Under the pieces are notes generated by a model that saw nothing but the letters and a program-made list of their open reading frames with translations, was not told the origin of the DNA and did not search any database. From the NCBI GenBank assembly GCA_963665815.1, contig OY762463.1, positions 3,072,001 through 3,136,000 of the forward strand: a DNA stretch of 64,000 nt. Reading direction: 5' to 3'. Positions 39,669 to 57,002 of the stretch are shown here, piece by piece. Within the stretch, counting starts at the first letter, position 1; each line of letters opens with the position of its first letter. Made by a program: the position numbers and the translations under genes. The DNA is from Candidatus Cloacimonadales bacterium (GTDB lineage: Bacteria; Cloacimonadota; Cloacimonadia; Cloacimonadales; JAIOQZ01).

Positions 39669-40235
39669 ATGGAGAATAAAAAGTTTGGAAATCCTGCAGT
39701 TGTTGGACTTGCAGGTTTCGGTCTCACTACATTTATATTGCAGATTCATAATCTTGGTCTCTGCGGAATTGGACCTGTATTGGCAATGGCTCTGATTTAC
39801 GGTGGTCTTGCTCAGATGATAGCCGGATTTCAAGAGCAAAAAATGGGGAACAACTTTGGATACTCAGCTTTTGTATCTTATGGTTCTTTCTGGATAGGAC
39901 TCGGCATAATCTGGTTGCTTAATCATTTTGGTATTTATAAGCTTTCAACAACCGATGTTGGCTGGTACCTCGTCGCCTGGACAATCTACACATTCATAAT
40001 GTTTATTGGAGCAATAAGAATTCATACAGCTATGGCTGTTACATTCCTGTTGCTGCTTATAGGGTTTATCCTGCTTGACCTTGGGCATTTCGGATTTCCG
40101 ATAATGAATAAAGTAGCAGGTGTTGAACTGATTGTTTGCGCTTGCTCAGCCTGGTATATGATGGCTGGCATTATCTGGAATGATCTTGCCGGTAAAACTG
40201 TTTTACCAATGGGAAAACCCTGGATAAAGTCATAA
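39669..40235 (+). CDS. satP: Acetate transporter, SatP/YaaH (GPR1/FUN34) family
   Basis: GNPAVVGLAGF, YGGLAQ, SYGSFW; 6 TMs; RBS GGAGG. Confidence 0.9.
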   Translation: MENKKFGNPAVVGLAGFGLTTFILQIHNLGLCGIGPVLAMALIYGGLAQMIAGFQEQKMGNNFGYSAFVSYGSFWIGLGIIWLLNHFGIYKLSTTDVGWYLVAWTIYTFIMFIGAIRIHTAMAVTFLLLLIGFILLDLGHFGFPIMNKVAGVELIVCACSAWYMMAGIIWNDLAGKTVLPMGKPWIKS

Positions 40236-40401: not shown

Positions 40402-43400
40402 CTACTTAAGCAATGTCATCTTAGATGTTTTCTTATAATTTCCGCATTTCATCACAACAAAATAGATTCCGCTTGATACGGATTTATTCCGTTTATCTTT
40501 TCCTGCCCAGACAACCTTATGGTATCCGGCTTGTTGGGCTTCGTCTATAAGTGTAACAACTCTCTGACCTTTCAGATTGTACACTGTAATATTTACATGA
40601 GAGTTATCATTTTCTTTTGATACTGAATAGTTAAGTGTTGTCTCAGGATTAAATGGATTAGGATAGTTTCCTGAAAATTCTGTAATCTTAGGAAGCATTT
40701 CATTGTCATTAATTCCAACAATTTCCACATCTACTGTATCACTACCAATCGACTCATATATTCCATAAAGAGCGGTTACATAGTATTGACTTGTTCCAAG
40801 CTGAGGATCAAGGTCGTTAAAGACTCTTACTCCTAACGGAACTTCTCCAATACTCTGATTATCTTTATAAATTCTATAGCCGGAATGGAATGGTTCTATA
40901 CTGCATTCATCCGGAAAATCAGGAAGTTCCCAGAATAAGGTAACGGCACTTTGCAGAATCTCATACTCAAGCCCTGCCGGAGGTACGAAATAACGTGGTC
41001 TGATACAGATAAATATTGGACCGGCAGCAGGTGATTCGACTTCTGGGGTAACATTAGAATATTTCGCAGTAAGCCAGAACATATGTGTTCCGGTCGGCAA
41101 TTCATCAATTATCAACTGTAAAGAATCAGGATCATTGATTTCACCAACCATATTAGTATTTGAATCCATATAGATTCTGTATCCACTCAGTACCTGTCCA
41201 TCAGGAATGAATGAAGGTTGCAGCCATGTCAGATCAGCACCAAAAATGCTGTAATTAGATGCAGTAAAATATTCAGGAGGATAATATCCATTGAAATCAA
41301 TTTCAGAAGAAATTATTTCAGAATGAGGAGATTCACCGCCATCGTATACTGCAGTTACAAAGAACTCGTAGATTCCGTTTTGAAGCATGCTGTCAAGATA
41401 ATATGTATCTGTAACAAGAGCTTGATTTATCTGAATGCTGTCACGGTAAATGTTATATCCCTGTAGTTCTCTATCTGTTATTCTCACATCAGGTTGATCA
41501 GGCATTCCAACTACAGCTCTCATTATAAAGTTACCATCAGTTTGTACTGACCAGTTCTCATCCTGCACTTTTGAGTAAGACATGTTTGCCGGTTGATCTG
41601 TATCTTTAGCGACTGTGAATGAGTTACCTGTATTCCATTGAACGACAACATAGAAATCTTCATCAACAATTGTGTTAACACCATCTTGAGGATAAGCAGA
41701 TATCCATTGACCTGAATATGAATTTGAATTAGCGTATATCGTATCTGTAAAAATCGGATTCAGCAAATCAGGATTACCACTGCCATCATCAGGGCATACG
41801 GATGCCATAATCTGTTCCTGACTATTAAGTCTGATCCTTGCAAATATTTTTGCACTTCTCACATCTACTGAAATGTTATTAGCAAATTTAACTGCATAAT
41901 ACTCATTCCCTGAAGCCATTCCCGGCCATATCCAGATATTGGGTTCACCATCATCATGCCTGTATTCACTGAGAACCGGGTCTCGTGGTTCAGACCAGGA
42001 TAAAAATACATTATTATATCTCTGTACATTTGCAATAAGATCAACCGGAGGTATTATCTGATCTGTAACAGGTGCAAGCATGAAATTTGCCTGAGTTACA
42101 GCATTATCTACGATTGTTACAAACCTACTGTCAGAATAATAGTTTTCTGCAGAACATGTTACCTGATAATGATTAGTATATATATGAACTGAGTATTGAC
42201 CAAGGGAATCTGTTGTTACTACAGAATCTCCTATTGCTATTTCTGCACCGGTAATTGGAAGAGTGGTTTGTATATCTGTTACTGTTCCATTCAAAGTACC
42301 TGCAGGAATGTGAATACTCAGAGGTATTATGTAATTTATTATCTGATCGTCAGCAATAGTTATCGTTGTATCACTCACAAACGGATCATACCCGATTTTA
42401 CTGCAATTTACAATATGTTCACCTGGAGGAACTGATAAACTGTAAAGTCCATTTTGACCGGAAACTGTCTGTACTCCGTCTATTGTCACTGTTGCACCTA
42501 TAATTCTATTATTGCTGCTTGAGTTATAAACATATCCGGAAACAATTCCTGCAGGAGGTATCATATTCATGGTGAATGAGAAATTCTGAACCGTTCTTGC
42601 AACAACTTGAACAAGTTCAGGATGAGTGTAATCGAAATAATCTTCTACAACGGCTGTTAATTGATACTCTCCATGAGATGCATCAAGAGTATAAAAGCCG
42701 GTTGTATCTGTAACAGCACTACTTCCATTTAATGTTACTGTCACATTGCTGATTGGCAAGCCGGTATCAGCATCTGTCACATAACCCTGCAAGGTTCCAA
42801 TTCTGTCAGTGTTAACAGTAACCGGAAGAATATCAGAAGGTTGACTTGTTCCTTCCTCATAAACAGCTACTACATAATAGTTGTATGCTCCTGTAGTTAA
42901 TCCCTGATCAAAATATCTTGGAAGGGTAACAGCTTCAGTGTTAATCTGTGAACCATCCCGATAAATATTGTATGTAAGCAGATCTCTTCCAGTTAACAAC
43001 CCTTGGGCATTATCAATAGTGTGAACAATAGGATATCTGGTAATTGAAGGATTAAACACAGTAAAAGAAGATCTTTGTTCAAACAAAGAATTTTGTCTTG
43101 TTACAACAGGCGGTACATCAGTTTCATAACTTCCAATCAGTTCAAAACAGAAATCTTTTTCTGCATTTGTTGACAATGGTGGTTCGAGAGCCAGCCAGTC
43201 TGTTCCTAAGGCATACTGCCCACCCGGATTTCTCCATAGCCCCGGTGTCTGGTTATACAGATAAGGAGTAACAACAGCAAATGCCTGAGCTCCGGTTGCA
43301 TTCCAGTCAACAATAGCCTGATATGAAACCCAGTATGTTCCTGAACCCAGATATGTATTGATTGGGAAATCAACCGTGTATGTGTTATTTACTGCTGAGG

Positions 43401-45576
43401 CAGGAGCGGAAGTAAATGAAATTACCTGTTGATCCGGCATTCCTGCGGAATCTGAATAAACTTTCACTAAAAATGAAATTGGCTGATCATACTGAATAGT
43501 CCCCCATGACATCAGCATTTTAATTGATTCGACATGAGCAGAATCCTGAAGAACAAAGTCTGCAGCAGCTACTGAATTGTATCCGGTGTTTCCATTCACA
43601 TAATCCTGAGCATTATGTGCTTCAGTTTCACCTTCATTAAAAATCTGGCTCCATAATGTCCCAGCCGGTTGCCAATGAAGCTGAATATTTTCAAAATCAT
43701 CTATATAATACAATCCTTCAGGTACACCGGGAACACCATTAAATACACTCAATGCAAGTGAAACATCAGTGGTATCCCCACCTGTAACTTCCATAAAATC
43801 GGAAGACATGGCAATATATCCGTCAAGAGCAGCTCTTACCTGAATAAAACCTTCAGGAATATCTTCTATATAGTAGTATCCTGTTGAATCAGTTAACTCA
43901 GTTATATCCCCCACGGATACAACAGCATCCTGCAATGGGAGCATTGTCTCTTCCGATGTAATATAACCTTGAATATAACCGGTTGTATAAGGATCAACAT
44001 TAATTTCTATTCTATAATCACCGTCTTCTCCAACTGCACCATCAACCACAATATAATATTGCCCCGGATCAATCTGAAGATTCATAATTCCTGAGTATAA
44101 CCCAAAATAGTCATCATTATATACCAGATAACTTACATTATCAATAGGCAGATCGACACTGTATATTCCAAGCTTAGTATCAAATGATGAGCCATCAAGA
44201 GAGATATCTATCAGAGTAGGAGCATTGATAAAGATGCTATATACAACATCTTTATAATCTGCTCCCGGTAAATCGTAATTATTGGACATAGAAGAAGTCG
44301 ATCCACTGTCTGCCCAGACTGTGCCCGGAGTAAAGTCTACAACAATTGGATTATAAGCAAAATCCCCTACTAAATGTGTTTTCTCAATTCCAAGATAGAA
44401 ATCACCATTAGCGTTCTCACCATCAATAACTACATAGTATGTACCGGGATCAAGAACAAGATTTCTGAAGCCGGATGAAGTTGTACTGAAATCATTATTA
44501 TGATACAAATAATTATCTGATTGAAATTGAGTAACATTATCATCATATATTGTTATATGAGGATGAAAATTGTCGGATGCTGCGATAATATTGTAATTTC
44601 TCTGTTCTGTAGGGCTCATAACGAATACTACATCTTTTGAGTCTAATCCGGGAGTATCGTAAATATTGTTGAAGTTATCTATACTTATATTAGTTGTAAA
44701 AACCGAATCCTGAATGAAAGCAATACTTAATGGATTCATAACTTCATCACCCTGATATGACACGTACTGCATCTGTAGCTCGAATATACCGGAATTATCT
44801 ACTCCACTGTCGACAACAAGATAGTATCGACCTTCTGTTAAAGGATAATTCTGTATTGCAACACCCTGATCTCCTTCTATCAAAAAGTTTGTAGAATCAG
44901 GATTATCCATACCTGCAGCATCATACAGATAATAGCCAACATCAAAACTAACTTGATTTATTGCGGCAGAAAATAGATAGTTACCTGTAAGATCAAAAGA
45001 ATATACTACATCCTTACCATCAGTACCGGTAAAATTGTAATCGTCCACAAACTGTTGTATAGATTGATTAGTAAAATACTGATGATTATTATCAAAAATA
45101 ACATTATATGGATTTGCATAGGATTCTCCCTGCAAAGGCATATAATCAATCTGTATATGAAAGTTACCCTCAGACGGTCCACTTGCATCAAGTACAATAT
45201 AATAATCATTAGCAGAACTTAATGCCAGATTTCTGAAGGCTGCCTGAAGCCCATAGAAATCATCATTGTAATACAACTGATTATTAGGTGCAGGTACAAT
45301 ATTTGCATTATAGATTGCCAATTTAGTGTCATAGTCCGACCCTTCAGTAGAGATATTTATACTAACATTGTATGGGATCGAAAGAAAATACACTAAATCC
45401 TTACCATCTGCCCCGGGAACATCATAATCGTTATTATATGTAACATTTGAACCGGAATCACTGTACACATAAGTATGAGGGAAATCAATTATAATTGGAT
45501 CAGCTATTGTATCTCCAACAGCTGAAAGAAATGCATACATCAAAATGATTACTGCAATTAACAGATACTTCTTCAT
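40402..45576 (-). CDS. 1724-aa secreted multidomain surface protein (4 N-terminal PPC-like repeats, carboxypeptidase-regulatory-like and FN3-like repeats, FlgD-Ig/T9SS-A-like C-terminus)
   Basis: Signal peptide; repeated GDxxxNP...YDxPGxDxKDVVY...YYxVxD; GYVTD...TDxxGxY; YNIYRD...YYVxAVY; NYPNPFNPETT. Confidence 0.85.
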   Translation of the reverse strand: MKKYLLIAVIILMYAFLSAVGDTIADPIIIDFPHTYVYSDSGSNVTYNNDYDVPGADGKDLVYFLSIPYNVSINISTEGSDYDTKLAIYNANIVPAPNNQLYYNDDFYGLQAAFRNLALSSANDYYIVLDASGPSEGNFHIQIDYMPLQGESYANPYNVIFDNNHQYFTNQSIQQFVDDYNFTGTDGKDVVYSFDLTGNYLFSAAINQVSFDVGYYLYDAAGMDNPDSTNFLIEGDQGVAIQNYPLTEGRYYLVVDSGVDNSGIFELQMQYVSYQGDEVMNPLSIAFIQDSVFTTNISIDNFNNIYDTPGLDSKDVVFVMSPTEQRNYNIIAASDNFHPHITIYDDNVTQFQSDNYLYHNNDFSTTSSGFRNLVLDPGTYYVVIDGENANGDFYLGIEKTHLVGDFAYNPIVVDFTPGTVWADSGSTSSMSNNYDLPGADYKDVVYSIFINAPTLIDISLDGSSFDTKLGIYSVDLPIDNVSYLVYNDDYFGLYSGIMNLQIDPGQYYIVVDGAVGEDGDYRIEINVDPYTTGYIQGYITSEETMLPLQDAVVSVGDITELTDSTGYYYIEDIPEGFIQVRAALDGYIAMSSDFMEVTGGDTTDVSLALSVFNGVPGVPEGLYYIDDFENIQLHWQPAGTLWSQIFNEGETEAHNAQDYVNGNTGYNSVAAADFVLQDSAHVESIKMLMSWGTIQYDQPISFLVKVYSDSAGMPDQQVISFTSAPASAVNNTYTVDFPINTYLGSGTYWVSYQAIVDWNATGAQAFAVVTPYLYNQTPGLWRNPGGQYALGTDWLALEPPLSTNAEKDFCFELIGSYETDVPPVVTRQNSLFEQRSSFTVFNPSITRYPIVHTIDNAQGLLTGRDLLTYNIYRDGSQINTEAVTLPRYFDQGLTTGAYNYYVVAVYEEGTSQPSDILPVTVNTDRIGTLQGYVTDADTGLPISNVTVTLNGSSAVTDTTGFYTLDASHGEYQLTAVVEDYFDYTHPELVQVVARTVQNFSFTMNMIPPAGIVSGYVYNSSSNNRIIGATVTIDGVQTVSGQNGLYSLSVPPGEHIVNCSKIGYDPFVSDTTITIADDQIINYIIPLSIHIPAGTLNGTVTDIQTTLPITGAEIAIGDSVVTTDSLGQYSVHIYTNHYQVTCSAENYYSDSRFVTIVDNAVTQANFMLAPVTDQIIPPVDLIANVQRYNNVFLSWSEPRDPVLSEYRHDDGEPNIWIWPGMASGNEYYAVKFANNISVDVRSAKIFARIRLNSQEQIMASVCPDDGSGNPDLLNPIFTDTIYANSNSYSGQWISAYPQDGVNTIVDEDFYVVVQWNTGNSFTVAKDTDQPANMSYSKVQDENWSVQTDGNFIMRAVVGMPDQPDVRITDRELQGYNIYRDSIQINQALVTDTYYLDSMLQNGIYEFFVTAVYDGGESPHSEIISSEIDFNGYYPPEYFTASNYSIFGADLTWLQPSFIPDGQVLSGYRIYMDSNTNMVGEINDPDSLQLIIDELPTGTHMFWLTAKYSNVTPEVESPAAGPIFICIRPRYFVPPAGLEYEILQSAVTLFWELPDFPDECSIEPFHSGYRIYKDNQSIGEVPLGVRVFNDLDPQLGTSQYYVTALYGIYESIGSDTVDVEIVGINDNEMLPKITEFSGNYPNPFNPETTLNYSVSKENDNSHVNITVYNLKGQRVVTLIDEAQQAGYHKVVWAGKDKRNKSVSSGIYFVVMKCGNYKKTSKMTLLK

Positions 45577-45724: not shown

Positions 45725-47497
45725 TTATCTCCTTTTCAAGTATCTGTCTATACCCAGTGCAGCTCTGTGACCGTCGGCAATCGCAGAAATTGCGTCAGCA
45801 GTGTTGTTTACAGTATCACCTCCGGCAAAAACAATCTCATCATTGGTCTGCATCATATCATTTGTTCTTACTTTATTTCTTCTTGTAATAATTTTATCAG
45901 CCAGTTCTTCTGACAGAAATGAGTGATCCGCAGACTGTCCGATTGCCTTAATTACTGTAGTGTATTTATCTTCATGAGTTTTCCCTTCAATAAGCACGGG
46001 TGATGGTCTTCTTCCACCTTCTTTCTGTACCATTTCAGCTTCACCCCAGATCAGAATACATCCATCAGTATTTTCCTTTATTTCCAGTGGAATTGCCTGA
46101 GGAACCATTCTGACTTTTTCGGCTTTTGCTTCATGGATTTCCTCTTCATCTGCCGGCATGTCTTCGATACGTCTTCTGTATAATACAGAGACAGAAGCTC
46201 CATAGCGTCTGGCAACACGGGCAGCATCCATGGCTACGTTACCTCCACCAATTACAGCTACATTATCTCCGATTTCCACAGTTATACCTTTATTAGTTTT
46301 ATCAAGAAATTCCAACCCGTTTATCACATTCGAATTTTCTTCACCCGGTATTTCCAGTTCATAGGGTTGATCAAGCCCGGTGGCCATAAATACAGCATCA
46401 TAACCTGATACCAGTTTACTGAACTCCTCAAAATTACTTATTCTCGTATTATATTCAACTTCTACTCCAAGTGACAATATGTGATCTATATCTTTCTTTA
46501 ATGCTTCAGGCGGAAGTCTATAATCCGGTACTCCATATTTCAGAGCTCCACCAAGTCCATCGTTACGTTCGAATATTTTCACGGAGTATCCCATACCTCT
46601 CAAATAGAATGCCGCACTTAACCCGGCAGGTCCACCACCGATTATGGCGATTTTCTTATCATTTTCAGGAAATTCCCGATTAAGCACTTCTTTCATCTGC
46701 TCAGAAGAAAACTGATCGATTATATATCTTTTCAACCATCGGATTGAGATTGGATCACCTCTATGGTTCAAAGCACAAACTTCTTCACACAAATGAGTAC
46801 AAATTCTACCGCATGCACCAGATAACGGATTTGTTTCATAAAGAATCTTCAGACCTTTCTCAATGTCTCCGTCTCTTATACACTCGATATAATCCGGGAT
46901 ACTCATGTGAGCAGGACAAGTTGAAATACAGATACCGCAGGAAATACATCTGTCAGCCTCCCTGACAGCCTTTTCCAGTGAATACCCTTTAACCATTTCA
47001 ATAAATGATTTAACAGAGTTCTCTGCATCAAGCATTTCCATTTCTTCACGTTTCAGATTAAGCAGTTCATACTGTTCAGCTCTTTTGTATCCCTTTTCAG
47101 AATTATCCCATGGTTTTTCTTCTGCCCCGGGAATAAATCGAAAAACTTCCGGATCCGTATCAACCCAGGTATACTCATTTGACATCGTAAGCGAGCCTGT
47201 AGGGCAGATATCAACACACAATGCACACCAGCAGCATCTTCCATAATCAATTCGAGGTCTTAATCCACTATCTCCTTTTTGAGTTTCCTGACCTTCTACA
47301 GGCACAAGATCAATTGCTGCATTCTGGCAGATTTCTTCACAGGTTCCGCAACCAATGCATTTATCCATATCATTTATATGAAATCCCCTGTATCTGTCCG
47401 CTCCGGGGCGTTCATCGAGAGGTTTATTTATAACAAAAGGTTTGGAAAATGCTCTTTTCCAGACATATAGTGGTGATAAAACATCTTTTATGCTCAT
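45725..47497 (-). CDS. MbxN/NuoI 2x[4Fe-4S] domain fused to a GltD-like FAD/NADPH oxidoreductase
   Basis: RYRGFH, CIGCGTCEEIC, CCWCALCVDICP; RCISC...CPAH, CGRICTHLCEEVC; GGGPAG; GGGNVAMD, LYRRR. Confidence 0.88.
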   Translation of the reverse strand: MSIKDVLSPLYVWKRAFSKPFVINKPLDERPGADRYRGFHINDMDKCIGCGTCEEICQNAAIDLVPVEGQETQKGDSGLRPRIDYGRCCWCALCVDICPTGSLTMSNEYTWVDTDPEVFRFIPGAEEKPWDNSEKGYKRAEQYELLNLKREEMEMLDAENSVKSFIEMVKGYSLEKAVREADRCISCGICISTCPAHMSIPDYIECIRDGDIEKGLKILYETNPLSGACGRICTHLCEEVCALNHRGDPISIRWLKRYIIDQFSSEQMKEVLNREFPENDKKIAIIGGGPAGLSAAFYLRGMGYSVKIFERNDGLGGALKYGVPDYRLPPEALKKDIDHILSLGVEVEYNTRISNFEEFSKLVSGYDAVFMATGLDQPYELEIPGEENSNVINGLEFLDKTNKGITVEIGDNVAVIGGGNVAMDAARVARRYGASVSVLYRRRIEDMPADEEEIHEAKAEKVRMVPQAIPLEIKENTDGCILIWGEAEMVQKEGGRRPSPVLIEGKTHEDKYTTVIKAIGQSADHSFLSEELADKIITRRNKVRTNDMMQTNDEIVFAGGDTVNNTADAISAIADGHRAALGIDRYLKRR

Positions 47498-47521
47498 TTT
47501 TTCTCCATCTCAGTTAAATCA

Positions 47522-48658
47522 TTACCGTTCAATTTCCGGAGGGTACGTATGCAGGGATGTCATCAATCCCGCAATATCAGATATATTGACACCTTCTGCA
47601 AGATGCTCCATAAGACATACAGCATGAGTATAACTCGGTCCTCTTACATTTACTCTTCTTGGATATTCAGATCCGTCAGTTACAACATAGAATCCGTATT
47701 CACCTCTTGTACACTCTGCCTTTACGTAGGTTTCTCCGGCCGGAATCTTCCAGTGAAGAACATTAGGCAGTTCAGTATGAAAAGCTCCTTTTTCAGGGAT
47801 ATGACGAAGTATCTGCCTGATCAATGAAACAGACTGCTGCATTTCTCTATACCTGAGTAAAGCTCTATTAAATGCATCAGATTTATTATCTGTCTGAATA
47901 TCAAATTTCAGTTCTTTATACATAACAAAAGGAGTATCTTTTCTGACATCTCGCAGCATTCCGGCAGCTCTGGCATTAGGTCCTACAATTCCGTACTCAT
48001 CTATCATATCCTGAGTTATAAGCCCCAGATCAATTGCTCTATCTTTAAATACTGCATTCTGGAACATTACCTTGTGAATATCATCAAGCAATATTTCAAT
48101 CTTATCCATTGTATCAAGAACTCTTTGAGCAAAACCTTCCGGCATATCTCCTCGAACACCTCCCGGCAGCATATACATATGATAAACGCGACCGCCTGTC
48201 AATTCTTCAAAAAGATCCAGCATATAGTCTCTGTGAGCAACCGCCCACTGACCTACTGTTCCCTGACCGAATGCACCAGCCTGTCCTCCGATCCACATAA
48301 GAAAACTCGTAAGACGGGACATTTCAAGATTCAGTGTTCTCAGCCATAAAGCCTTTTCCGGTACTTTTATTCCTGCCAGATCTTCTATGGCAGCTGCAAA
48401 GCAATATTCGTTAAAATCTGGTTCAGGTACAGCAATTCGGCAAACCAGAGGAAAACACTGAATAAACTTACGTCTTTCCATAAGTTTTTCAAAACCTCTG
48501 TGCAGATAACCAACATGTGTTTTGCATTCGATAACTTCATCACCGCAAATAGTGAGTTCAAGAGACATGTTTCCGGTTATACCCGGATGGTTAGGTCCCT
48601 GCCATATTTTCAGATATTTATGAGAACTTAAATCCGTATATTTTTCTTTTTCAGACAT
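47522..48658 (-). CDS. mbxL: MbxL/NuoD-like large subunit
   Basis: GPNHPG, GYLHRGFEKLME, RIAVPEPD, TGGRVYH, RGEYG, RGPSY. Confidence 0.85.
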   Translation of the reverse strand: MSEKEKYTDLSSHKYLKIWQGPNHPGITGNMSLELTICGDEVIECKTHVGYLHRGFEKLMERRKFIQCFPLVCRIAVPEPDFNEYCFAAAIEDLAGIKVPEKALWLRTLNLEMSRLTSFLMWIGGQAGAFGQGTVGQWAVAHRDYMLDLFEELTGGRVYHMYMLPGGVRGDMPEGFAQRVLDTMDKIEILLDDIHKVMFQNAVFKDRAIDLGLITQDMIDEYGIVGPNARAAGMLRDVRKDTPFVMYKELKFDIQTDNKSDAFNRALLRYREMQQSVSLIRQILRHIPEKGAFHTELPNVLHWKIPAGETYVKAECTRGEYGFYVVTDGSEYPRRVNVRGPSYTHAVCLMEHLAEGVNISDIAGLMTSLHTYPPEIER

Positions 48659-48660
48659 TT

Positions 48661-49131
48661 TTACTCCATGAGAGCTTTTGTAATAATTGATTTTTCATCT
48701 GCTGCAACTTTTCTGGTTACTTTGGAGATATCTCCACCAAATAATTGTCCCATCAGCTTAATATTCATGGAAGCTATATTGACTTTACCTTCTCTGTCTT
48801 GAAATACGGCAAGTCTGCAAGGCATTATTGCAGTAATGAACATATTTTTGTCTTTAGAAAGAATTTCATTTACGTTATCCGGTTTACATATTGAAAATGT
48901 TACAACTCTTACGTTAGTATTGTAACCAAAATTCCTCATACATTCATCAATCTCATAGATTCTCTGAATTTCCCATTCATGATCCAGAATCGAATTTTCG
49001 ATTTTTGAAACAGTCTGATCGAATGACAGTTTCGAAGGCACAACCTTAATCATGGCAGGAGGTCCGAACTTAAGCACAATTACAAGTGTAAGTATTATTC
49101 CAACAGCAAAGCCAATAAAAAATTTCTTCAT
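48661..49131 (-). CDS. DUF302 family protein with N-terminal membrane anchor
   Basis: SKLSFDQTV, SICKP, MPCRLAVF motifs. Confidence 0.78.
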   Translation of the reverse strand: MKKFFIGFAVGIILTLVIVLKFGPPAMIKVVPSKLSFDQTVSKIENSILDHEWEIQRIYEIDECMRNFGYNTNVRVVTFSICKPDNVNEILSKDKNMFITAIMPCRLAVFQDREGKVNIASMNIKLMGQLFGGDISKVTRKVAADEKSIITKALME

Positions 49132-49671
49132 TTATTTATCCTCATTAAGTAAATCGTTTTTGTATAACTGATCTTTCATATATTCAGCCGGATCGTTTGT
49201 AGTTCTTCCCGGTCTTGGGAAATAAGTCTCTTCAGAGTATTTTTTTGTATCAAAATCTCTTCTGTATGGCGGTATACCGTCCCATCCTTCAAGAATAAAG
49301 GGATCGTCGAGTCCAGGGCTGCCAGGAAACTCAATACCAAACATCTCTTTCAACTCGCGCTGATATGTTTTTGCCTGTTTCCATAACTCATGTATGGACA
49401 CCATTTCAGGTTTATTGCGATCAATAAAAACTCTGATAGCAATATCATGGGCAGTCTTGTAGTTATGAACAATATATGTGAGTTGAAATTTCTCATGCTC
49501 CAGATGATCAACTGCAGTTATCAGTACAAGATGAGTATAATCAAGTTGAAACTTCAGTTCATAGAACAGCGACAGAAGGCTTTCTTCTTTTATTGTAATA
49601 AAGCTTACATACTCTTTATCAACTCTGTCTGAGCCACTATATTTTTTAAGTAATCCATCTAAAAAGTCCAT
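49132..49671 (-). CDS. mbxK: MbxK/NuoC-like subunit
   Basis: ITAVD, RELKEMFGIEFPG, PPYRRDF. Confidence 0.85.
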   Translation of the reverse strand: MDFLDGLLKKYSGSDRVDKEYVSFITIKEESLLSLFYELKFQLDYTHLVLITAVDHLEHEKFQLTYIVHNYKTAHDIAIRVFIDRNKPEMVSIHELWKQAKTYQRELKEMFGIEFPGSPGLDDPFILEGWDGIPPYRRDFDTKKYSEETYFPRPGRTTNDPAEYMKDQLYKNDLLNEDK

Positions 49672-49687
49672 TAAATCTCCTGCTATC

Positions 49688-50275
49688 CTACCAGCTATAG
49701 TCCGGCATGTCCCAATGTTTTATAATTTTCTTCTGATTCTCTTTATACCAGTCGAAGTTTTCAGCATAATGGTTTGCACCTTCAGCCTTTCCTTCTCGAA
49801 TCAGTTGTTTAAGCTTCTGAAATCCGGCAATAATTGATTCCGGTCTGGGCATACAGCCTGCGATGTAGACATCAACTGGAATATAATGATCAAGCCTGTT
49901 TATAGTATTATAGCTATCCCAATACATACCGCCGTTAATTGTACAGCTTCCCAGCCCTATTACAAATTTTGGATTCTGCATCTGCTCGTATGAACGGATA
50001 ATTCTTTTGAGGGTTTTTACAGAAGCATATCCTCCAATGATAAAGACAGAAGCTTGTCTTGGAGTTGGTCTTGCCGCAATACCATATCTGTACATGTCAT
50101 ATCTTGCTGTCATCAATGGTCGCAGTTCCACAGCACCGCACCCCGTACCAAAACCAAGAATCCATAATGAATTAGCTCTCGCCCAGTTCAGGAAGTTCTC
50201 AACATATTTGTTCAATGCTTTAACCGGTTTCGGTCTCTCCTGACAGAAAAGTTCGTTGTTCATATTATCATTCAT
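49688..50275 (-). CDS. mbxJ: MbxJ/NuoB-like Fe-S subunit
   Basis: WARANSLW, GTGCGAVE, GSCTINGG, PVDVYIAGCMPRPE. Confidence 0.9.
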   Translation of the reverse strand: MNDNMNNELFCQERPKPVKALNKYVENFLNWARANSLWILGFGTGCGAVELRPLMTARYDMYRYGIAARPTPRQASVFIIGGYASVKTLKRIIRSYEQMQNPKFVIGLGSCTINGGMYWDSYNTINRLDHYIPVDVYIAGCMPRPESIIAGFQKLKQLIREGKAEGANHYAENFDWYKENQKKIIKHWDMPDYSW

Positions 50276-50300
50276 ATATCACCTGACAATTTTCTATTTG

Positions 50301-51251
50301 TTATTTAAAGTATAGAGCAAATATTATACTGATTATTCCCAGTATCAGTGGGTACTTCAGGAAAAAACGTATAGACTGCTCAGTTCTGAAACGAGGGAAA
50401 GCAACTCCAATAAAAACGCTGAACATATAGATAAAGAATGTTTTTATAACCATTATTGCAATTGCAACTAAATGTTCAACAAAAGTTCCGGCAGCAACAG
50501 CAGTTCCTCCAAAGAATAAATTCATGAACAGTACAAGCTTAGCTGCATTGAAAACTGATCTGTTTGTTTGCAGCACACCTAAGAATCCACTGTGAAACTC
50601 AGTTGGAGGTCCGATTGCTATTTCCTGAGGAGCAAGAACAATATCAAAAGGAGAGTGCATATTCATTCCCAGCATTGCGATCATTGCAGTAATAACAGCT
50701 AAAGGATTTGTGAAAAGTGTCCAGTTAAGTATACTTCCCTGCTGAGCTGCTACAATGTCCACAATCGATAATGTATTATACTGTATCATCAGCGAAATTA
50801 TTGAAAGAGTAAACGGTAGTTCAAAGGCTGTCATTTGAGAAAGCCCCCGGGCAACACCAACAGCGCTGTAAGGGTGTCCGCTCTCTCCTGCCCCAAGTGC
50901 CATACCAAGCTGTCCAAAGAACATAAAGTACAGTACAAGCAGGATATCTCCAGCAAAATGAAAGTTTGCAAACATGATTGAATTGTGAATTATAGGTATG
51001 AACATAAGAGTTCCAATCCCACCGGCAAGTCTGAAAACCGGTCCCAGATAGAACATTACTCCGTGAGTAATCATTGTTCTTTTACCATAGGTTTTGATTA
51101 TATCCATATAAGGCTGCCATAATGGAGGACCAAATCTTCCGTGTACTCTGGCGACTATTTTTCTGACTGTCCCGTTGAGAATCAGTCCATAGTTAACTAT
51201 AACAAATAAGCTTATAAAAGCATTACCCACAGATTTCAGTATATCAGACAT
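50301..51251 (-). CDS. mbxM: MbxM/NuoH-like membrane subunit
   Basis: RKIVARVHGRFGPPLWQP.MD, PFD...QEI..GP.TE, PRFRTEQ. Confidence 0.88.
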   Translation of the reverse strand: MSDILKSVGNAFISLFVIVNYGLILNGTVRKIVARVHGRFGPPLWQPYMDIIKTYGKRTMITHGVMFYLGPVFRLAGGIGTLMFIPIIHNSIMFANFHFAGDILLVLYFMFFGQLGMALGAGESGHPYSAVGVARGLSQMTAFELPFTLSIISLMIQYNTLSIVDIVAAQQGSILNWTLFTNPLAVITAMIAMLGMNMHSPFDIVLAPQEIAIGPPTEFHSGFLGVLQTNRSVFNAAKLVLFMNLFFGGTAVAAGTFVEHLVAIAIMVIKTFFIYMFSVFIGVAFPRFRTEQSIRFFLKYPLILGIISIIFALYFK

Positions 51252-54200
51252 TTATTACTCCTGATAAGAAAAAGATTGCTATGATGTATAATACAACCTG
51301 TAATGCATAGACTTGAGCATTACCGGAGAAAATGTATTTCAGACCCGATGCTATCGCATGATTAAGATCATAGATAAACTCCCAGAATTTTTCCACAGAT
51401 GAGTTAAGCAGAGGTGAGAAAGCTTTTTTGTAGAATGGGAAGAAATTATAGGCATAATGTGTAGTTTCAGGTTTATATGGCCGCTCTGCCGCAAAGACAA
51501 TATTGAACTGACCAACTTTCTGAATTTTTCTCGTTGCAGCCAGCAGAATAAGAAATGCAAAGCCAAATACTCCCATTGTAACATTCATTACAAGGCTTCC
51601 ATTCCAGCTTGTAATTGAGCTTTTCAATAAATTACCATCCCAGACAAGACTGTGTCCGAAGATATCAGATACTGCACTCTGCACAGGTTTTACGATAGTA
51701 GAAGGGAACATTGAGAACAGCATGATAACACCTATCAGAATAAACTGAGGAATGATATACCATACAGGAGCTTCCTTGACTGCTTTATGTTCTGTTTTTG
51801 CCTGTCCGAGGAATATCGTATGAATGAGCCTGAACAGATAAAGAAACGCTATAGTGCTTATGAAGAATGCAGCTCCAGCCTGTAGATACCAGCCTTTCTC
51901 AAGCAGTCCGGTGTAAAGAAGCCATTTGCTGCCGAAACCTGCAAGTGGTGGTACTCCGGATATTGCAATTATCCCAATCAATACTGAGATGAATGTCAGA
52001 GGCATTTTCTTGATCAGCCCACCTGTCTTGTACATTGACATTGTATCCGTACGGAGATGTACTCCTGAAACTGCAAGGAATACAAGACCTTTAAAAACAA
52101 GGTGAAGGACTGTCAGATAGAGTGCCGAAATCCAACCAATATCGCTGAACATGGATATTGACAGGATAATGTATCCAATCTGTCCCATACTTGAATATGC
52201 CAGCAATTTCTTATAGTTTTCCTGGAACACTGCCAGAAAAGTTCCTGTAAACGCAGTCAAAATACCGATAATACTCAGTATCTGCATAATCAGTTCATTG
52301 CTCATCAAAAGAGGAGCCATAAGAATACTGAACAGGAAAAAACCATAAATACCTATCTTACTGAGCACAGATGAGAAAAATGTGGATATAATATCATCTG
52401 ATCGTGTATAAGCATCCGGAAGCCAGATATGAACACCACAGGCACCGGATTTAATAAGGAATGCCATTGATAGCAAGATGTAAACAATTATACCTGCTTG
52501 AGGAATTCCTACAAAGCTGATCATATATGTATTGTCGATGTATTTCCCTGCATAACTGAATCCCAGTAATAAAAGCACTGCAGATCCAAGGGAGAACATA
52601 ATATATTTGAGACCGGCAGCTTCTGTTTTTCTGTTATACAGAACAAGGAAGTAGGAGGATATTGTAATAAACTCCCATTGAACGAAAAACTGCAATGTTC
52701 TCTGAGCAACGATAAGAATAATTAAAGAGGATATCATCATTGCAAGGAATGGATAAAAACCCTGTTCTTTACCTTTTCTGTTCATTGAAGCAAAGACAAA
52801 GAGTAAAGATGCTGCCAGAAATATCCCTCCAAATATAAGTCTCAGATTACCGATATCACTTCCATAAAGCCTATACAACATCCAGGAATATCCTGAAATG
52901 GAAGCAATAAGCACTATTGACTTAGCTTTTGCTGTCAACCAGTCCAGAGTAAAGAAAATCATCAGGAAAAAAACAGGTGCATAAGTTATGTAATTCATTT
53001 GTTTTATAGGATTCAGTACAACACCGACAAGGAATAGAAGGAACAAAACAGCTATAACAGGAATAACCTGCATAAATCCATGATCAGTATTCCTGTTTAC
53101 AGGTTCAGCTGAATCTGTTTTTCTTACAAGAACTTTTCCCATCCACTTCAGCATGTAATATGATTCCAGAAGGACTCCCAGACCAATAGCAAAACTATAG
53201 AATGGATTCATGTTCTTCATCATTATGTTAAACAGTTGCCATTTACTCCAGAATCCCGGGAAAGGTGGTAATCCGATTAAAGCCAGAATAAAGATTACGA
53301 AAAAGATAAGAAGATCAGGGTGTTTCCTGAGATTCGTCCATTCATTAACTCGCTTTTCTTTTATAATACCGCTTATCCAGAATAAACCTGATTTTGCGAG
53401 GAAATGGTTGATGAATAAACCACCTGCGATTTTCAAAATCATATGATTATCCACATTTATGCTGAATAAGAAGACAATTGCAGCAATAATAAGATTTACC
53501 TGAGCAATTGAAGAATAGCCCAGCAGTCTGTTTGCAGCTTTCTGTCTCAAAGCAATTAGATTCATAAATACAAAAGATGCAACGGACAGAATAAACAGCA
53601 GATTTGCTGTATGTAGTGTTTTAAATATCAACAGACCTGTCAGTGGTAGAACTTTATAAAAGGCATAAACGCTTGCAGCTGTAATTACTGACGAGAACAT
53701 CGCTCCTGTACCTGAGTCCGCAGATTCGTAAACAGATAGTCCCCAGCCATTGGCAGGAAAAGGTTTCAGTTCAACAAATAGTGCTCCCAGAATGAAAACG
53801 ATTGCTCCTGCAAGTACTTTTTCAGCCTTGAACAATGTAAATTCTCTGGATACAGAAAGAAAATCCAGATGCAGTGAACCGCTTAAGTAATAAAGCATGA
53901 TTATTCCCAGGAGTAATACAATAGATGTTATTCCCGATGCAACCATATACTGAAATCCCGCAGAATACGATCTTTTGTCTCGACCTGAATATATAATTGC
54001 TGCTGATGAAAGAGACATAATCTCAATGAATACAAACAGATTAAATATATCTCTGGTCAGAATAATTCCGTTTATTCCTATAAACAGTGTAATTATGAGC
54101 ATGATAAAGTATTTGCTGCCCCTGACCATTTTCTGAGAATTATACATGATAGTAAGTATACCTGTAAAATTCACGAGAGTTAATAAAATTGATTCGATTA

Positions 54201-54435
54201 TTCCCATGTGAAGACTTATTGAGAAAGGAGGTTTTGAGCCTGCAGTAAACATTGAAACACTGATTTGTGTTCCGGACTGAGTCATATTCCAGAGCCAGAT
54301 GCCCGGAATTACTGCCGCTGCTGTCATAATAAGTCCGGAAACAATCACGGAGAACTTTCTGCTAACTTTATCAAACAGTGGTATAAGGAATACACCTGCC
54401 AGCATAACTATCAAGATATATATTGGGTTTACCAT
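51244..54435 (-). CDS. Fused double antiporter-like subunit (MbxH+MbxH'; MrpD/NuoL-type)
   Basis: Two full modules: DIFNLFVFIE/LLGYSS/GLPPFPGF and QFFVQWE/HIWLPDAY/LLAYSS/GVPPLAGF. Confidence 0.85.
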   Translation of the reverse strand: MVNPIYILIVMLAGVFLIPLFDKVSRKFSVIVSGLIMTAAAVIPGIWLWNMTQSGTQISVSMFTAGSKPPFSISLHMGIIESILLTLVNFTGILTIMYNSQKMVRGSKYFIMLIITLFIGINGIILTRDIFNLFVFIEIMSLSSAAIIYSGRDKRSYSAGFQYMVASGITSIVLLLGIIMLYYLSGSLHLDFLSVSREFTLFKAEKVLAGAIVFILGALFVELKPFPANGWGLSVYESADSGTGAMFSSVITAASVYAFYKVLPLTGLLIFKTLHTANLLFILSVASFVFMNLIALRQKAANRLLGYSSIAQVNLIIAAIVFLFSINVDNHMILKIAGGLFINHFLAKSGLFWISGIIKEKRVNEWTNLRKHPDLLIFFVIFILALIGLPPFPGFWSKWQLFNIMMKNMNPFYSFAIGLGVLLESYYMLKWMGKVLVRKTDSAEPVNRNTDHGFMQVIPVIAVLFLLFLVGVVLNPIKQMNYITYAPVFFLMIFFTLDWLTAKAKSIVLIASISGYSWMLYRLYGSDIGNLRLIFGGIFLAASLLFVFASMNRKGKEQGFYPFLAMMISSLIILIVAQRTLQFFVQWEFITISSYFLVLYNRKTEAAGLKYIMFSLGSAVLLLLGFSYAGKYIDNTYMISFVGIPQAGIIVYILLSMAFLIKSGACGVHIWLPDAYTRSDDIISTFFSSVLSKIGIYGFFLFSILMAPLLMSNELIMQILSIIGILTAFTGTFLAVFQENYKKLLAYSSMGQIGYIILSISMFSDIGWISALYLTVLHLVFKGLVFLAVSGVHLRTDTMSMYKTGGLIKKMPLTFISVLIGIIAISGVPPLAGFGSKWLLYTGLLEKGWYLQAGAAFFISTIAFLYLFRLIHTIFLGQAKTEHKAVKEAPVWYIIPQFILIGVIMLFSMFPSTIVKPVQSAVSDIFGHSLVWDGNLLKSSITSWNGSLVMNVTMGVFGFAFLILLAATRKIQKVGQFNIVFAAERPYKPETTHYAYNFFPFYKKAFSPLLNSSVEKFWEFIYDLNHAIASGLKYIFSGNAQVYALQVVLYIIAIFFLSGVINV

Positions 54436-54776
54436 TTGAGCTCCTTATAATCATCAACTGACAATGATTTTCCGGATTTCACCATATTTATTGCATAAGC
54501 CAGCATAACTGCCGTTACAGCCAGCCCGATCACAATTGCTGTCAGTACAAGAGCCGAAGGAACAGGATCTACTACATTCACGCTGCCCGGTGTAATTTTA
54601 TCTGTAAAAATCGGTGCTGTAGCATTTTTCATATATCCAAGAGACACAATTATCAAGTGTACTCCTGTATCTATTATTGAAAAACCAATAATAATTTTTA
54701 TTATATTTTTTCGTGTCAGCATTGCCCACAAACCTATTATAATTAAAGCGATACCTATAAACAGTGTTATTTTCAT
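54429..54776 (-). CDS. MrpC/MnhC-like subunit (MbxG)
   Basis: DPVPSALVLTAIVIG. Confidence 0.9.
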   Translation of the reverse strand: MKITLFIGIALIIIGLWAMLTRKNIIKIIIGFSIIDTGVHLIIVSLGYMKNATAPIFTDKITPGSVNVVDPVPSALVLTAIVIGLAVTAVMLAYAINMVKSGKSLSVDDYKELKW

Positions 54777-54777
54777 A

Positions 54778-55473
54778 CTACTTCTCCATATTCTTCAGGA
54801 TTCCGCTTATTTCCGCACCTACTTTTATGCCGATTACAGAATATATTAATGGAATTGCTCCTGCACTGAATAACTTGAGATATTCACCTATACCGATAAA
54901 TCTCGGATCAAGAAAACCATTTCCAATAATAAAAGCTTTGTTTGAAACTAACAGTAAACCTGATAAACCCAGAAGAATATATATTACTCCTGAAGACGAT
55001 TCCAGCCAGTGCAGAATAGACTCATTAGTATTTGATGCTACATCAGAAAGTATCATCAAAACAAAACCGGAAGCAATAATAACTCCCCCCTGAAATCCTC
55101 CACCGGGAGAAAGATGACCATGAGAAAAGACGTAAATTCCAAGAACAACTATTGCTCCTAACAGCACGGATGTACCTGATTTCAGTATTTCAGAAGATTG
55201 TTTTCTCTTGAATTTTTTCCTTCTGCCAAGAAGAAAGCCGACTGCAGCAGTAGCAATAAAAAGAACCGTTACCTCTCCAAGTGTATCCAGTCCTCTGTAT
55301 GTTACAACAACAGCAGTAACTACATTGGGAGAATTCAGATCTTTTGGTGCTCCTTCCACATATTCCTTAGATACAAGCCCAAGCTCATCGTGTGGTTCAA
55401 TGAATAATGTCAAATACACCAGAATAGTAATTACAAGGAAAATTGCCAGAATAGTAAGAACTCTGTTAATCAT
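54778..55473 (-). CDS. MrpB/MnhB-like subunit (MbxE+F)
   Basis: NVVTAVV..YRGLDTLGE, HGHLSPGGGFQGG. Confidence 0.9.
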   Translation of the reverse strand: MINRVLTILAIFLVITILVYLTLFIEPHDELGLVSKEYVEGAPKDLNSPNVVTAVVVTYRGLDTLGEVTVLFIATAAVGFLLGRRKKFKRKQSSEILKSGTSVLLGAIVVLGIYVFSHGHLSPGGGFQGGVIIASGFVLMILSDVASNTNESILHWLESSSGVIYILLGLSGLLLVSNKAFIIGNGFLDPRFIGIGEYLKLFSAGAIPLIYSVIGIKVGAEISGILKNMEK

Positions 55474-55777
55474 TTATTTCCTCCCTGTCCAGCATATCAT
55501 TTGATTCTGAAAGATGAGAGTCATCCGCATTTTCCTTTTCCAGAATATCTCTGATTCTTCTTACAGCAAACAGGAAAACAATGGAAGTCAGTACAGATCC
55601 GATTGCTGCCTCTGTCATTGCCACATCAGGAGATGCCAGAATAAGATACAGAATACTGGCAATTAGACTTATAATTCCGGAAGCTATGATAGCAGAAATC
55701 AACTGACCTGAATAAACAGCATAAATTGCTGATATTATCATAATGAATCCTGCAGTAACTATTATTATTGTAGTCAT
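55466..55777 (-). CDS. MbxD-like (DUF4040) subunit
   Basis: SPDVAMTEAAIG. Confidence 0.88.
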   Translation of the reverse strand: MTTIIIVTAGFIMIISAIYAVYSGQLISAIIASGIISLIASILYLILASPDVAMTEAAIGSVLTSIVFLFAVRRIRDILEKENADDSHLSESNDMLDREEIND

Positions 55778-56118
55778 TTACTCTCCTCACAATCTGATTT
55801 ATCAGTCTGAAGATCATCCCTGACTGTTTTTTCTGACATAAAAGTTTTAACACAATGTGCAGCCCTTGCCAATGCATGAGATGAAATCGGATTAGTAAAA
55901 AGAATGAAGACCATAAGAAGTATAATTTTCCCACAGCCAACTGTCTCAAAAAAACCTATGCTTATACCTGCGAGAAAAAGGATAGACCCTAATGTTGAGG
56001 TTTTTGTACCTGCCTGCATTCTATTATAAAGATCAGGCATTCTTATTAGCCCAAGAGACCCAAGCAGAAAGAAAATCGATCCTGCCAATGCAAATAAAGC
56101 CCCAATAATCTGAGCCAT
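55774..56118 (-). CDS. MrpG/MnhG-like subunit (MbxC)
   Basis: RMPDLYNRMQAGTK, TNPISSHALARAA. Confidence 0.9.
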   Translation of the reverse strand: MAQIIGALFALAGSIFFLLGSLGLIRMPDLYNRMQAGTKTSTLGSILFLAGISIGFFETVGCGKIILLMVFILFTNPISSHALARAAHCVKTFMSEKTVRDDLQTDKSDCEESK

Positions 56119-56378
56119 CAGAAACCTCCTTCAAGGTATCTTGCTACAGCAACAACCCCAAGGAAACTTATAAAACCGTAGACCAGTGCAACATCAATGT
56201 ACATTCTACGTCCTGACGTTGCTGCAAGAAAAACAATCAATCCGATTCCTATTATTGTCATTACATCAAGTGCTACAATTCTATCAGCAGGCGATGGACC
56301 TTTCAGGAATCTGAAAAAGCTAAGCAGAAATGCAACAAGTGCTATTATTGCACTGATATTGTATATTAGTTCAGCCAA
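56118..56378 (-). CDS. MrpF/MnhF-like subunit (MbxB)
   Basis: GPSPADRIVALD, DVALVY, ARYL. Confidence 0.9.
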   Translation of the reverse strand: MAELIYNISAIIALVAFLLSFFRFLKGPSPADRIVALDVMTIIGIGLIVFLAATSGRRMYIDVALVYGFISFLGVVAVARYLEGGF

Positions 56379-56868
56379 AAATCACCTCCAGATACTTTTC
56401 GAAACTACCGACAATAGCTCTGGTTGTACTTTCAATATCTTTAGTTCCTACATCAATCCAGTGTATATAGAAAAAATCCTCATCTGTTTCAACGGTAAGT
56501 GTGCCGGGAGTAAGAGTTATAGAATTAGCAAGAAATAATCTTCCAATTCTTGATTTAAGTTTTGTACGAACTTTTACAATTCCGGGATTAATCGGAATTT
56601 TGGGATGAAGCACCCTGAAAGCAACATCAATGTTTGATTTGATAAGCTCTACAATGAATACAAAGATATAAATTATCAAATAAAGTAATGATTTGGGATT
56701 TAATCTGATTTCTGCAAAAATACTGTCACACCTTAAAAGGAAAATAGATACAAGAATACTTACTATTGCCCCCATTATCAGTTCCTGATTATCTTTCACA
56801 CCGGTAAGTGCAATCCAGACAATAAACAGAAACAGAGTAGAAACAATGAAATGCTTTAATTTTCTCAT
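56371..56868 (-). CDS. MrpE/MnhE-like subunit (MbxA)
   Basis: SNIDVA, PGIV, LANSITLTPGTL, IHWID. Confidence 0.9.
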   Translation of the reverse strand: MRKLKHFIVSTLFLFIVWIALTGVKDNQELIMGAIVSILVSIFLLRCDSIFAEIRLNPKSLLYLIIYIFVFIVELIKSNIDVAFRVLHPKIPINPGIVKVRTKLKSRIGRLFLANSITLTPGTLTVETDEDFFYIHWIDVGTKDIESTTRAIVGSFEKYLEVIFG

Positions 56869-57002
56869 GGATTATTTCTTTCCTCTTTTTAAAATTTCAT
56901 AATGTTAACTAAGTTAAAGTATAAAACTGAAAACCCAATAATGCAAGTTTTTTTCTTGCATATGAATACTTTTTTCAGATAATTAGTTCTCAAGGAGATA
57001 TT

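Follow-up and report, generated by a model that had tools for sequence, protein, structure and literature searches.

A 13-gene operon on the minus strand of a 64,000-nucleotide stretch of a Candidatus Cloacimonadales bacterium genome (GenBank assembly GCA_963665815.1, contig OY762463.1, positions 3,072,001 to 3,136,000; hereafter the window) encodes what we propose, with a probability of roughly 0.55, to be a bacterial complex of the MBS/Mbx family that couples the NADPH-driven reduction of S-S bonds to the pumping of H+/Na+. The operon runs from position 56868 to position 45725 of the window and holds the Mrp-type subunits A, B, C, D, E, G, H and H' together with M, J, K, L and N in one cluster, which is a feature of the MBS/Mbx family. 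A first-pass annotation of the sequence had described an active site that fits no characterised chemistry, on the premise that MBS catalysis needs three non-cluster cysteines that are replaced here. Our comparisons indicate that S-S cleavage is probably retained at a three-Cys iron-sulfur cluster, within a reshaped pocket that leaves the real substrate open. On current evidence the complex works like MBS; it is not MBS in the narrow sense of the Pyrococcus furiosus enzyme, but a variant branch with its own pocket signature.

Active site of the J and L subunits

The best matches in the Protein Data Bank (PDB) for L, J, M and H' were the chains of P. furiosus MBS (formerly Mbx; PDB 6U8Y), with E values of 2e-91 for L (MbsL/NuoD, 378 amino acids, 47522..48658), 1e-65 for J (MbsJ/NuoB, 195 amino acids, 49688..50275), 1e-52 for M and 1e-56 for H', and the values for L and J rule out a chance match. 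HMMER alignment to 6U8Y placed FGTGC of J on FCTGC of MbsJ, and RIAVPE and HTYPPE of L on RICVPE and DNCPPD of MbsL, so the three non-cluster cysteines are substituted, as the first-pass annotation had claimed: MbsJ C25 by G43 (J loop G43 to R52, 50120..50149, with R52 at MbsJ P34), MbsL C85 by A76 (segment C73 to A76, 48431..48442), and MbsL C385 by Y372 (H370-T371-Y372, 47543..47551, at MbsL D383-N384-C385 and Nqo4 D401-P402-V403). Alignment against MbsJ, MbsL and Nqo4, a check that the annotation itself had proposed, thus placed no Cys at these three positions. C46, C111 and C141 of J match MbsJ C28, C93 and C123 and would form the three-Cys proximal [4Fe-4S] site.

The other absences listed by the annotation were also borne out by alignment. 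Neither RxCxxC nor DPCxxC NiFe motifs were found in L, nor a tandem CC in J (C46-G47), and the Thermus thermophilus Nqo4 residues H38, Y87, D139 and F146 correspond to T28, V77, A129 and G136 of L, while the loop position of MbhL E21 reads T28/G29. Homologues of J, K, L, M and N and of the antiporter-like subunits are found both in complex I and in the MBH complex of P. furiosus (6CFW). The window operon differs from complex I in lacking the tandem Cys, the four Nqo4 residues and NuoEFG, and from MBH in lacking the NiFe Cys set.

What did not hold is the premise. In P. furiosus MBS, the C25A and C85A/C385A variants were reported as wild-type-like on dimethyl trisulfide (DMTS), and removal of the unique non-Cys Fe of the proximal cluster caused an activity loss of about 98%, which was reversible (Yu et al., 2020; PMC7684303). 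The same report describes the equivalents of H38, Y87 and MbhL E21 as absent in MBS itself, and its mutant assay used a model substrate with viologen at 80 °C (PMC7684303); a 2021 review restates these mechanistic findings (PMC8165549). Apart from the three cysteines, every absence listed by the annotation is therefore common to MBS, and in the published assay the enzyme can do without these three as well. A three-Cys cluster with no NiFe ligand set and no His/Tyr equivalents is the MBS signature itself rather than a departure from characterised chemistry. The proposition that loss of the three Cys excludes MBS chemistry is rejected on the strength of the 2020 mutants together with the patchy loss within the branch described below.

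Structural models agreed with this placement. An AlphaFold2 model of L had a mean predicted local distance difference test score (pLDDT) of 89, with residues 373-378 below 50, and its first fold match was 6u8y_L at a template modelling (TM) score of 0.91. The J-L pair folded with the cluster had a score of 0.83, the best control 0.00; of the pairs used to set the mark, 116 of the 157 solved ones reached it, as did 2 of the 215 mismatched ones. Contact agreement between runs was at least 89% and partner pLDDT at least 87. Such a pass is expected from the likeness to 6U8Y. R52 of J lies in the modelled interface, touching L140 of L, and residues 70-71, 74 and 77-78 of L are listed there; C73, A76, H370 and Y372 are not, although the output carries no ligand distances and a residue not listed is uncertain. 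Nothing in the J-L model points to L as the source of a fourth Cys ligand, though such a ligand may exist.

The annotation had pointed to a Cys three residues upstream of the substituted position (VCRIA) that might compensate, and this residue, C73, is genuinely present. Obligatory compensation among the L cysteines 68, 73, 76, 316 and 372 was considered separately and rejected, as no fixed pairing was seen and 3 of 119 near homologues lack C76, C316 and C372 altogether.

A multi-phylum branch with its own pocket residues

A scan of GTDB genomes found 301 stretches that encode L relatives, and the locus counts given here refer to the best 80 of them (63-96% identity), with fewer loci where a residue was not read. 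Two further sets comprised 119 near homologues of L and 120 L sequences of the type found in Thermotoga. For J of the latter type, 80 metagenome loci yielded 69 MBS-type motifs, the remainder being 10 without the motif and one complex I; these contigs are redundant. Hosts of the branch include Cloacimonadota, Spirochaetes, Bacteroidales, Marinimicrobia, Magnetococcales, Alpha- and Gammaproteobacteria and Clostridia. All 12 core genes were present in 48 of the 80 loci and stood in the same order in each of the 48. J and L are the best-conserved subunits, at about 65-75% identity across phyla as against 36-45% for H-H'.

In a FastTree phylogeny of L, the group containing the window copy had a support of 1.0 and a stem of 0.56, and it was joined to the Thermotoga-type set with a support of 0.946; the tree had 89 rows, with the Thermotoga-type sequences thinned to 14 of 120 and the representatives to 34 of 142, and P. 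furiosus MbsL was placed by bit scores only. Judged from the sequences, the branch is well supported, multi-phylum and distinct from the three-Cys Thermotoga type. Two parts of the first-pass inference stand, namely the distinct branch and an acceptor that is strictly unknown, and the inferred departure from MBS chemistry does not.

The cluster cysteines are invariant wherever they were read (C46 in 73/73, C111 in 76/76, C141 in 77/77), the position of the second complex I Cys is Gly (G47) in 73/73, and the C25 site is Gly or Ala in 73/73. Loss of all three non-cluster cysteines is, however, no trait of the branch: the C85 equivalent is Cys in 39 of 80 loci (Ala in the other 41) and in 93 of the 119 homologues; at the C385 site, 79/79 loci and 113 of the 119 homologues have Tyr, and the other 6 homologues have Cys, as do two further loci (L092 and L093). 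Fixed in the branch and without an MBS counterpart are R52 of J (Arg in all 74 relatives read), H370 of L (79/79 loci and 119/119 homologues; a more distant sequence, P0241, has Gln) and an L Cys before the conserved Arg, which is C73 in 76 of 80 loci and shifted by one place in four, so that it occupies position -1 or -2 in 80/80 loci as in 119/119 homologues. The remodelling of the pocket towards polar residues is the sound part of the first-pass reading.

Most named homologues carry the label NADH-quinone oxidoreductase subunit D, for which the missing quinone residues offer no support. Among side observations on related loci, three Thermotoga-type GltD-fused operons (L160, L170 and L176; 3 of the 69 motifs) have a J that reads CTGCC, with a complex I-like tandem Cys in addition to the C25 equivalent. 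One Cloacimonadales genome (G015, locus L094) carries the three-Cys Thermotoga type instead of the branch, and another (G011) has two close L copies at 69% and 65%.

Operons of this kind are already in print. In the mbx-like operons that Degli Esposti (2015) described from Thermotoga, Magnetococcus and proteobacteria, a GltD-related flavoprotein takes the place of NuoI, a rubrerythrin often stands at the end, and NuoD has vestigial NiFe Cys (PMC4758237); this is in keeping with the remark of the annotation that related bacterial Mbx operons are known. The residues of the present branch may already be shown in the alignment figure and supplement of that paper. The window operon shares the architecture, the GltD fusion and its IRWLKR motif with that group, and a Magnetococcales locus (L004) falls inside the branch. 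It differs from these operons in having neither a terminal rubrerythrin-like gene nor either vestigial Cys, both of which vary within the branch: a rubrerythrin-like gene lies 3' of the operon in 39 of 78 loci, two representatives being confirmed by Pfam. From the Thermotoga-type loci in particular, which keep all three Cys, have Pro at the R52 position and carry acidic NADH-type motifs, it differs in its NADPH-type motif as well. Literature searches, which did not cover subscription journals and were not aimed at the pocket residues by name, found no assay or biochemical study of any branch member. Several other publications served as context only (PMC10356935, PMC9772386, PMC6349859, PMC8542988, PMC6085437, PMC9304861).

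Electron input and the membrane arm

The last gene of the operon (45725..47497) encodes MbsN/NuoI, with two [4Fe-4S] sites, fused to a flavoprotein of the GltD/NfnB fold with two further [4Fe-4S] sites and FAD, as assigned by Pfam and alignments. PRK13984 was the best model over its full length, at 690 bits, below its cut-off of 946. In P. furiosus MBS, MbsN stands alone and is fed by ferredoxin; the fusion points to NAD(P)H rather than free ferredoxin as the input, with an added ferredoxin input possible. The fused gene is present in 78 of 80 branch loci (67 complete), and Thermotoga-type loci carry the same fusion, 56 of their 80 metagenome loci covering it to the end.

The GltD domain shares its fold, two [4Fe-4S] clusters and FAD with the corresponding domain of StnC and of Bfu-type NfnA (8OH5, 9N5U, 9BOV) and with NfnB (4YLF). 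K256 aligns to the Glu of 4YLF and to the Lys of 8OH5 and 9N5U, and non-bifurcating StnC is described as having K170 at the FAD-proximal cluster position (PMC10482914). By this comparison, the domain looks non-bifurcating. Unlike NfnB, it lacks the Glu ligand and no NfnA-like gene occurs in the operon, and unlike StnC it is wired to the MbsN clusters of a membrane pump, not to a NuoG domain and a bifurcating HydBC-like core. The IRWLKR motif occurs in 73 of 78 loci (four are truncated and one misaligned); LRLLYR, with Tyr for the FAD-proximal Lys, replaces it in 3 of 14 Cloacimonadales loci, all of the same family (L083, L084 and L085). The nucleotide site reads Y440-R441-R442 (46172-46180), a motif that we read as NADPH-type in the GltD fold, with an acidic motif read as NADH-type. 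Among the 67 complete relatives, 18 have YRR, 46 an acidic motif and 3 another. Ala occupies the C85 site in every one of the 18 YRR copies, a co-occurrence that probably reflects shared ancestry.

This input arm bears on another reading, in which the complex would be a ferredoxin:NAD(P)+ oxidoreductase, with ferredoxin feeding the MbsN clusters, the GltD flavin reducing NAD(P)+, and the J-L cavity surviving as an unused relic on an Mrp antiporter. It was proposed by Degli Esposti in 2015 (PMC4758237), the genome holds several small ferredoxins and electron flow from ferredoxin to NADP+ is downhill; however, the proposal goes back to the understanding of Mbx before 2018, the route bypasses the J cluster and the coupling loops although J and L are the best-conserved subunits, and Rnf already couples ferredoxin to NAD+ in this host. 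We consider it improbable.

For the membrane arm, H and H' are fused in one open reading frame of 1063 amino acids (51244..54435; alignment to 6u8y_X, E 1e-56) that would provide two antiporter-like proton pumps, which together with the Na+ module are also found in P. furiosus MBS, there with H and H' unfused. All five charged residues of MbsH' are kept in the alignment (E588, K662, K693, H778 and K837 for MbsH' E128, K217, K248, H336 and K399). Among 52 full-length relatives each of them is conserved in 51-52, position 837 being either K or R. In the H half, E138, E222, H344 and K398 were assigned by motif, with matching invariant E, K and H residues. The membrane anchor MbsM/NuoH (316 amino acids, 50301..51251; 6u8y_M, E 1e-52) keeps three of five acidic residues, D203, E210 and E218, which correspond to MbsM D196, E203 and E211. 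As far as these residues tell, the ion pump looks intact.

Genome context

The host genome is 98.7% complete, and the L gene is its sole NuoD-family gene. It encodes Rnf, a second Rnf/Nqr-type operon, four [FeFe]-hydrogenase-family genes, two rhodanese-domain genes and, by eye and BLAST, a StnABC-like cluster and several small ferredoxins. The StnABC-like transhydrogenase cluster lies at C1:2127804-2133361 and the second Rnf/Nqr-type operon (B, C, D, E and F-like) at C1:2371017-2374865, with no NqrA seen beside it. Searches of the host genome for NiFe hydrogenase (PF00374), MqnA, MenB and MqnC found none, and neither MenB nor MqnC exceeded its cut-off in any of 41 Cloacimonadales genomes, 13 of which carry an L of the branch at 65% identity or more. 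With these menaquinone markers missing, an endogenous menaquinone acceptor is unlikely in the host. The sole UbiA-family gene of the host best matches DGGGP synthase, below cut-off; a UbiA-family search of 27 branch genomes gave matches in 25, the family being too broad to inform on quinones. This prenyltransferase-like gene (L102, C1:1592428-1593138) directly follows a polyprenyl synthase gene, as in archaeal-type lipid pathways. This has been reported previously for Cloacimonadota.

Rubrerythrin is absent downstream of the operon, and its homologue is found at C1:2613070, in what by eye is an oxidative-stress cluster (C1:2608557-2613570) with PerR-like, flavodiiron, ferritin, desulfoferrodoxin and rubrerythrin genes; the cluster ends in this homologue, the counterpart of the ferritin-like gene found after the operon in relatives.

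The context also bears on the direction of electron flow. In reverse, the ion gradient would drive electrons from sulfide, persulfide or polysulfide to NAD(P)+ for biosynthesis or carbon fixation. A small potential gap would make the reaction reversible, the window copy is NADPH-type, and the branch is common in sulfur-oxidising Gammaproteobacteria and Magnetococcales; in the Riftia symbiont, a putative Mrp-Mbx complex, which may or may not belong to the branch and may run in either direction, is co-expressed with the reductive tricarboxylic acid (rTCA) cycle (PMC11636981). On the other side, the present host looks like a fermenter whose Rnf, [FeFe] hydrogenases and Stn-like transhydrogenase are already able to make NADPH, and Thermotoga maritima induces mbx while reducing elemental sulfur (PMC9431562). 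Reverse operation seems rather unlikely to us.

Proposed mechanism, energetics and alternatives

In the proposed forward reaction, NADPH would reduce the FAD of the fused GltD domain by hydride transfer. The two [4Fe-4S] clusters of this domain, and then the two of MbsN, would relay the electrons to the three-Cys cluster of J, whose open Fe would bind an S-S bond and cleave it reductively. Candidate substrates are polysulfide or another form of sulfane sulfur, or else a disulfide or polythionate of more polar character. The redox step would drive the two H-H' proton pumps, the Mrp module turning H+ into a Na+ gradient. Of this scheme, the sequence itself shows the gene set, the cofactor motifs, the three-Cys site, the pump residues and the lack of NiFe and quinone motifs; cleavage of S-S bonds at the cluster without the three Cys has been demonstrated for P. 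furiosus only, and direction, NADPH specificity, substrate and coupling in the branch are inferred. In favour of the reading, all leading structure matches are MBS subunits; C25, C85 and C385 are dispensable and the cluster catalytic in P. furiosus (Yu et al., 2020), and the three cluster Cys are invariant in the branch; T. maritima mbxA is up 4.36-fold on elemental sulfur (PMC9431562), and the Thermotoga-type loci have the same N-GltD fusion; K256 fits the StnC pattern; and the host lacks the menaquinone markers.

Several observations weigh against S-S reduction by an NADPH-fed MBS. By estimate, electron transfer from NADPH to polysulfide releases no more than some 10-20 kJ/mol, which would not pay for two protons, and the yield would be lower still in the 46 of 67 complete relatives with the acidic motif; ferredoxin-fed MBS, for comparison, is credited with 41 kJ/mol (PMC7684303). 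Both Cys are kept in 120/120 Thermotoga-type L sequences, with never a His at 370, and C25 is kept with Pro at 52 in 69/69 Thermotoga-type J motifs, so that the three cysteines are under selection in the sister group and lost here. P. furiosus MbsL scores 310 bits against the window copy, 381 against Thermosipho and 408 against another sequence (P0202), by which the branch is the more derived. In MbsM, E104 corresponds to F111, which is Phe in 70 of 71 relatives, and E193 to S200, where no Glu is kept. The sulfur context of the genome is weak as well, as YeeE and CCG/Hdr domains were not found in the host and its sole TusA match is a YedF-like gene beside a cysteine desulfurase. Finally, the polar R52, H370 and Y372 sit oddly with the MBS pocket, which has been described as "highly hydrophobic, aprotic" (PMC7684303). 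The thin energetics may mean a low stoichiometry, ferredoxin also feeding N, or an S-S acceptor of higher potential, and the last would suit a polar pocket.

The same pocket invites the thought that it was rebuilt for new chemistry, with a polar, non-sulfur or proton-requiring acceptor such as an external quinone, a phenazine or a humic-type shuttle, H370 and Y372 then serving as H-bond or proton donors convergent with the His/Tyr pair of complex I, at the D401/V403 positions. J R52 presumably occupies the position of Nqo6 M51. The near-invariance of H370, Y372 and R52, the absence of His and Tyr there in the 120 Thermotoga-type L sequences and the Pro in place of Arg in the 69 J motifs agree with this, D401 and M51 are listed among the quinone-chamber positions (PMC4758237), and a higher-potential acceptor would solve the NAD(P)H energy shortfall. 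Yet Y372 is Cys in some branch members and the same-clade P0241 has Gln for the His; the quinone signature residues H38, Y87, D139 and F146 are all missing here; the complex occurs in Cloacimonadales genomes that lack MenB and MqnC over cut-off; and the three-Cys cluster with its open Fe is strictly kept, which is what catalysis at the cluster would predict. We regard such an acceptor as unlikely, and a reduction of S-S bonds at the cluster as the better account.

Operon architecture and neighbouring genes

The 13 co-oriented genes stand in the order given by the first-pass annotation, as the open reading frames and Pfam agree, and neighbouring genes are separated, or overlap, by no more than about 25 bases. 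The Pfam order is MNHE, MrpF, MnhG, MbhD, MbhE plus MnhB, Oxidored_q2, two Proton_antipo_M stretches in the fused H-H' gene, NADHdh, Oxidored_q6, Complex1_30kDa, DUF302, Complex1_49kDa and Fer4 plus Fer4_20 plus Pyr_redox_2. The operon opens with MbsA/MrpE of the Na+ module (165 amino acids, 56371..56868, PF01899), MbsB/MrpF (86 amino acids, 56118..56378, PF04066) and MbsC/MrpG (114 amino acids, 55774..56118, PF03334), followed by MbsD (103 amino acids, 55466..55777, PF13244 MbhD), MbsE/MrpB (231 amino acids, 54778..55473, PF20501 and PF04039) and MbsG/MrpC (115 amino acids, 54429..54776, PF00420); MbsK/NuoC (179 amino acids, 49132..49671, PF00329) follows J.

Between K and L lies a gene for a DUF302 protein (156 amino acids, 48661..49131, PF03625), an insert that distinguishes the operon from that of P. 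furiosus. A single locus out of 80 has it at this place, so far within the operon it is confined to the genus of the window, and none of nine other Cloacimonadales DUF302 matches lies beside L, on which grounds we reject it as a core subunit. Its N-terminal hydrophobic helix suggests that the protein is probably extracytoplasmic, and we treat it as a passenger or an extracytoplasmic accessory. The link of DUF302 to sulfur in print is speculation on sox clusters (PMC5037610).

As for regulation, a scan for promoters and terminators gave 54 promoter-like sites against 42 ± 7 expected by chance, with nothing decisive, and an Rfam search of the window gave no match. A perfect 7-bp inverted repeat at 56941-56961, between the operon and a divergent 2-hydroxyacid dehydrogenase/BtpA pair, is a possible regulator site or terminator. 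In relatives, a Rex-like repressor gene precedes the operon in 4 loci (L002, L009, L059 and L068), 6 Bacteroidetes loci (L008, L010, L013, L027, L039 and L080) have a Crp/Fnr-family gene upstream of it in divergent orientation, and a dihydroorotate-dehydrogenase-like gene follows it in 7. Directly downstream of the window operon, on the same strand, a secreted-looking protein of 1724 amino acids (40402-45576) has repeated domains and a C-terminal sorting-type domain, and no neighbour family resembling it was seen beside the operon in relatives. Further genes in the window include a GPR1/FUN34/YaaH (acetate transporter-like) gene at 39669-40235 and a small hemerythrin-like open reading frame at 989-1390, the latter judged by eye.

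Implications

The operon is a real and intact member of a described bacterial group, Mbx with a NuoI-GltD fusion, and the window itself adds little beyond its NADPH-type motif and the DUF302 insert. The branch to which it belongs is common in anoxic and sulfidic habitats, in Cloacimonadota, Spirochaetes, Bacteroidales, Marinimicrobia, Magnetococcales and sulfur-oxidising symbionts, and a copy that lacks all three cysteines amounts to a natural experiment on the MBS mechanism. As cultured carriers exist (Rhodobium orientis DSM 11290, Prolixibacter bellariivorans ATCC BAA-1284 and Marispirochaeta aestuarii), the substrate question is testable.

More tentatively, and as a possibility to which we give a minor share of our confidence, the branch may add another chemistry to the hydrogenase/MBS/complex I superfamily: its ion pump, fed by NAD(P)H, would use the three-Cys cluster and a new Arg/His/Tyr/Cys pocket to reduce a polar acceptor of higher potential, not polysulfide. 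Examples of such an acceptor would be polythionates, organic disulfides or persulfides and external shuttles, the carriers including anaerobes without quinones of their own, and His370 and Tyr372 would then be an independent re-invention of the His/Tyr pair of complex I. Were S-S reduction to hold for this copy, catalysis by the cluster alone would be confirmed in vivo, and NAD(P)H-linked sulfur respiration would be established in bacteria; were it not, the copy would define a new acceptor for a relative of complex I.

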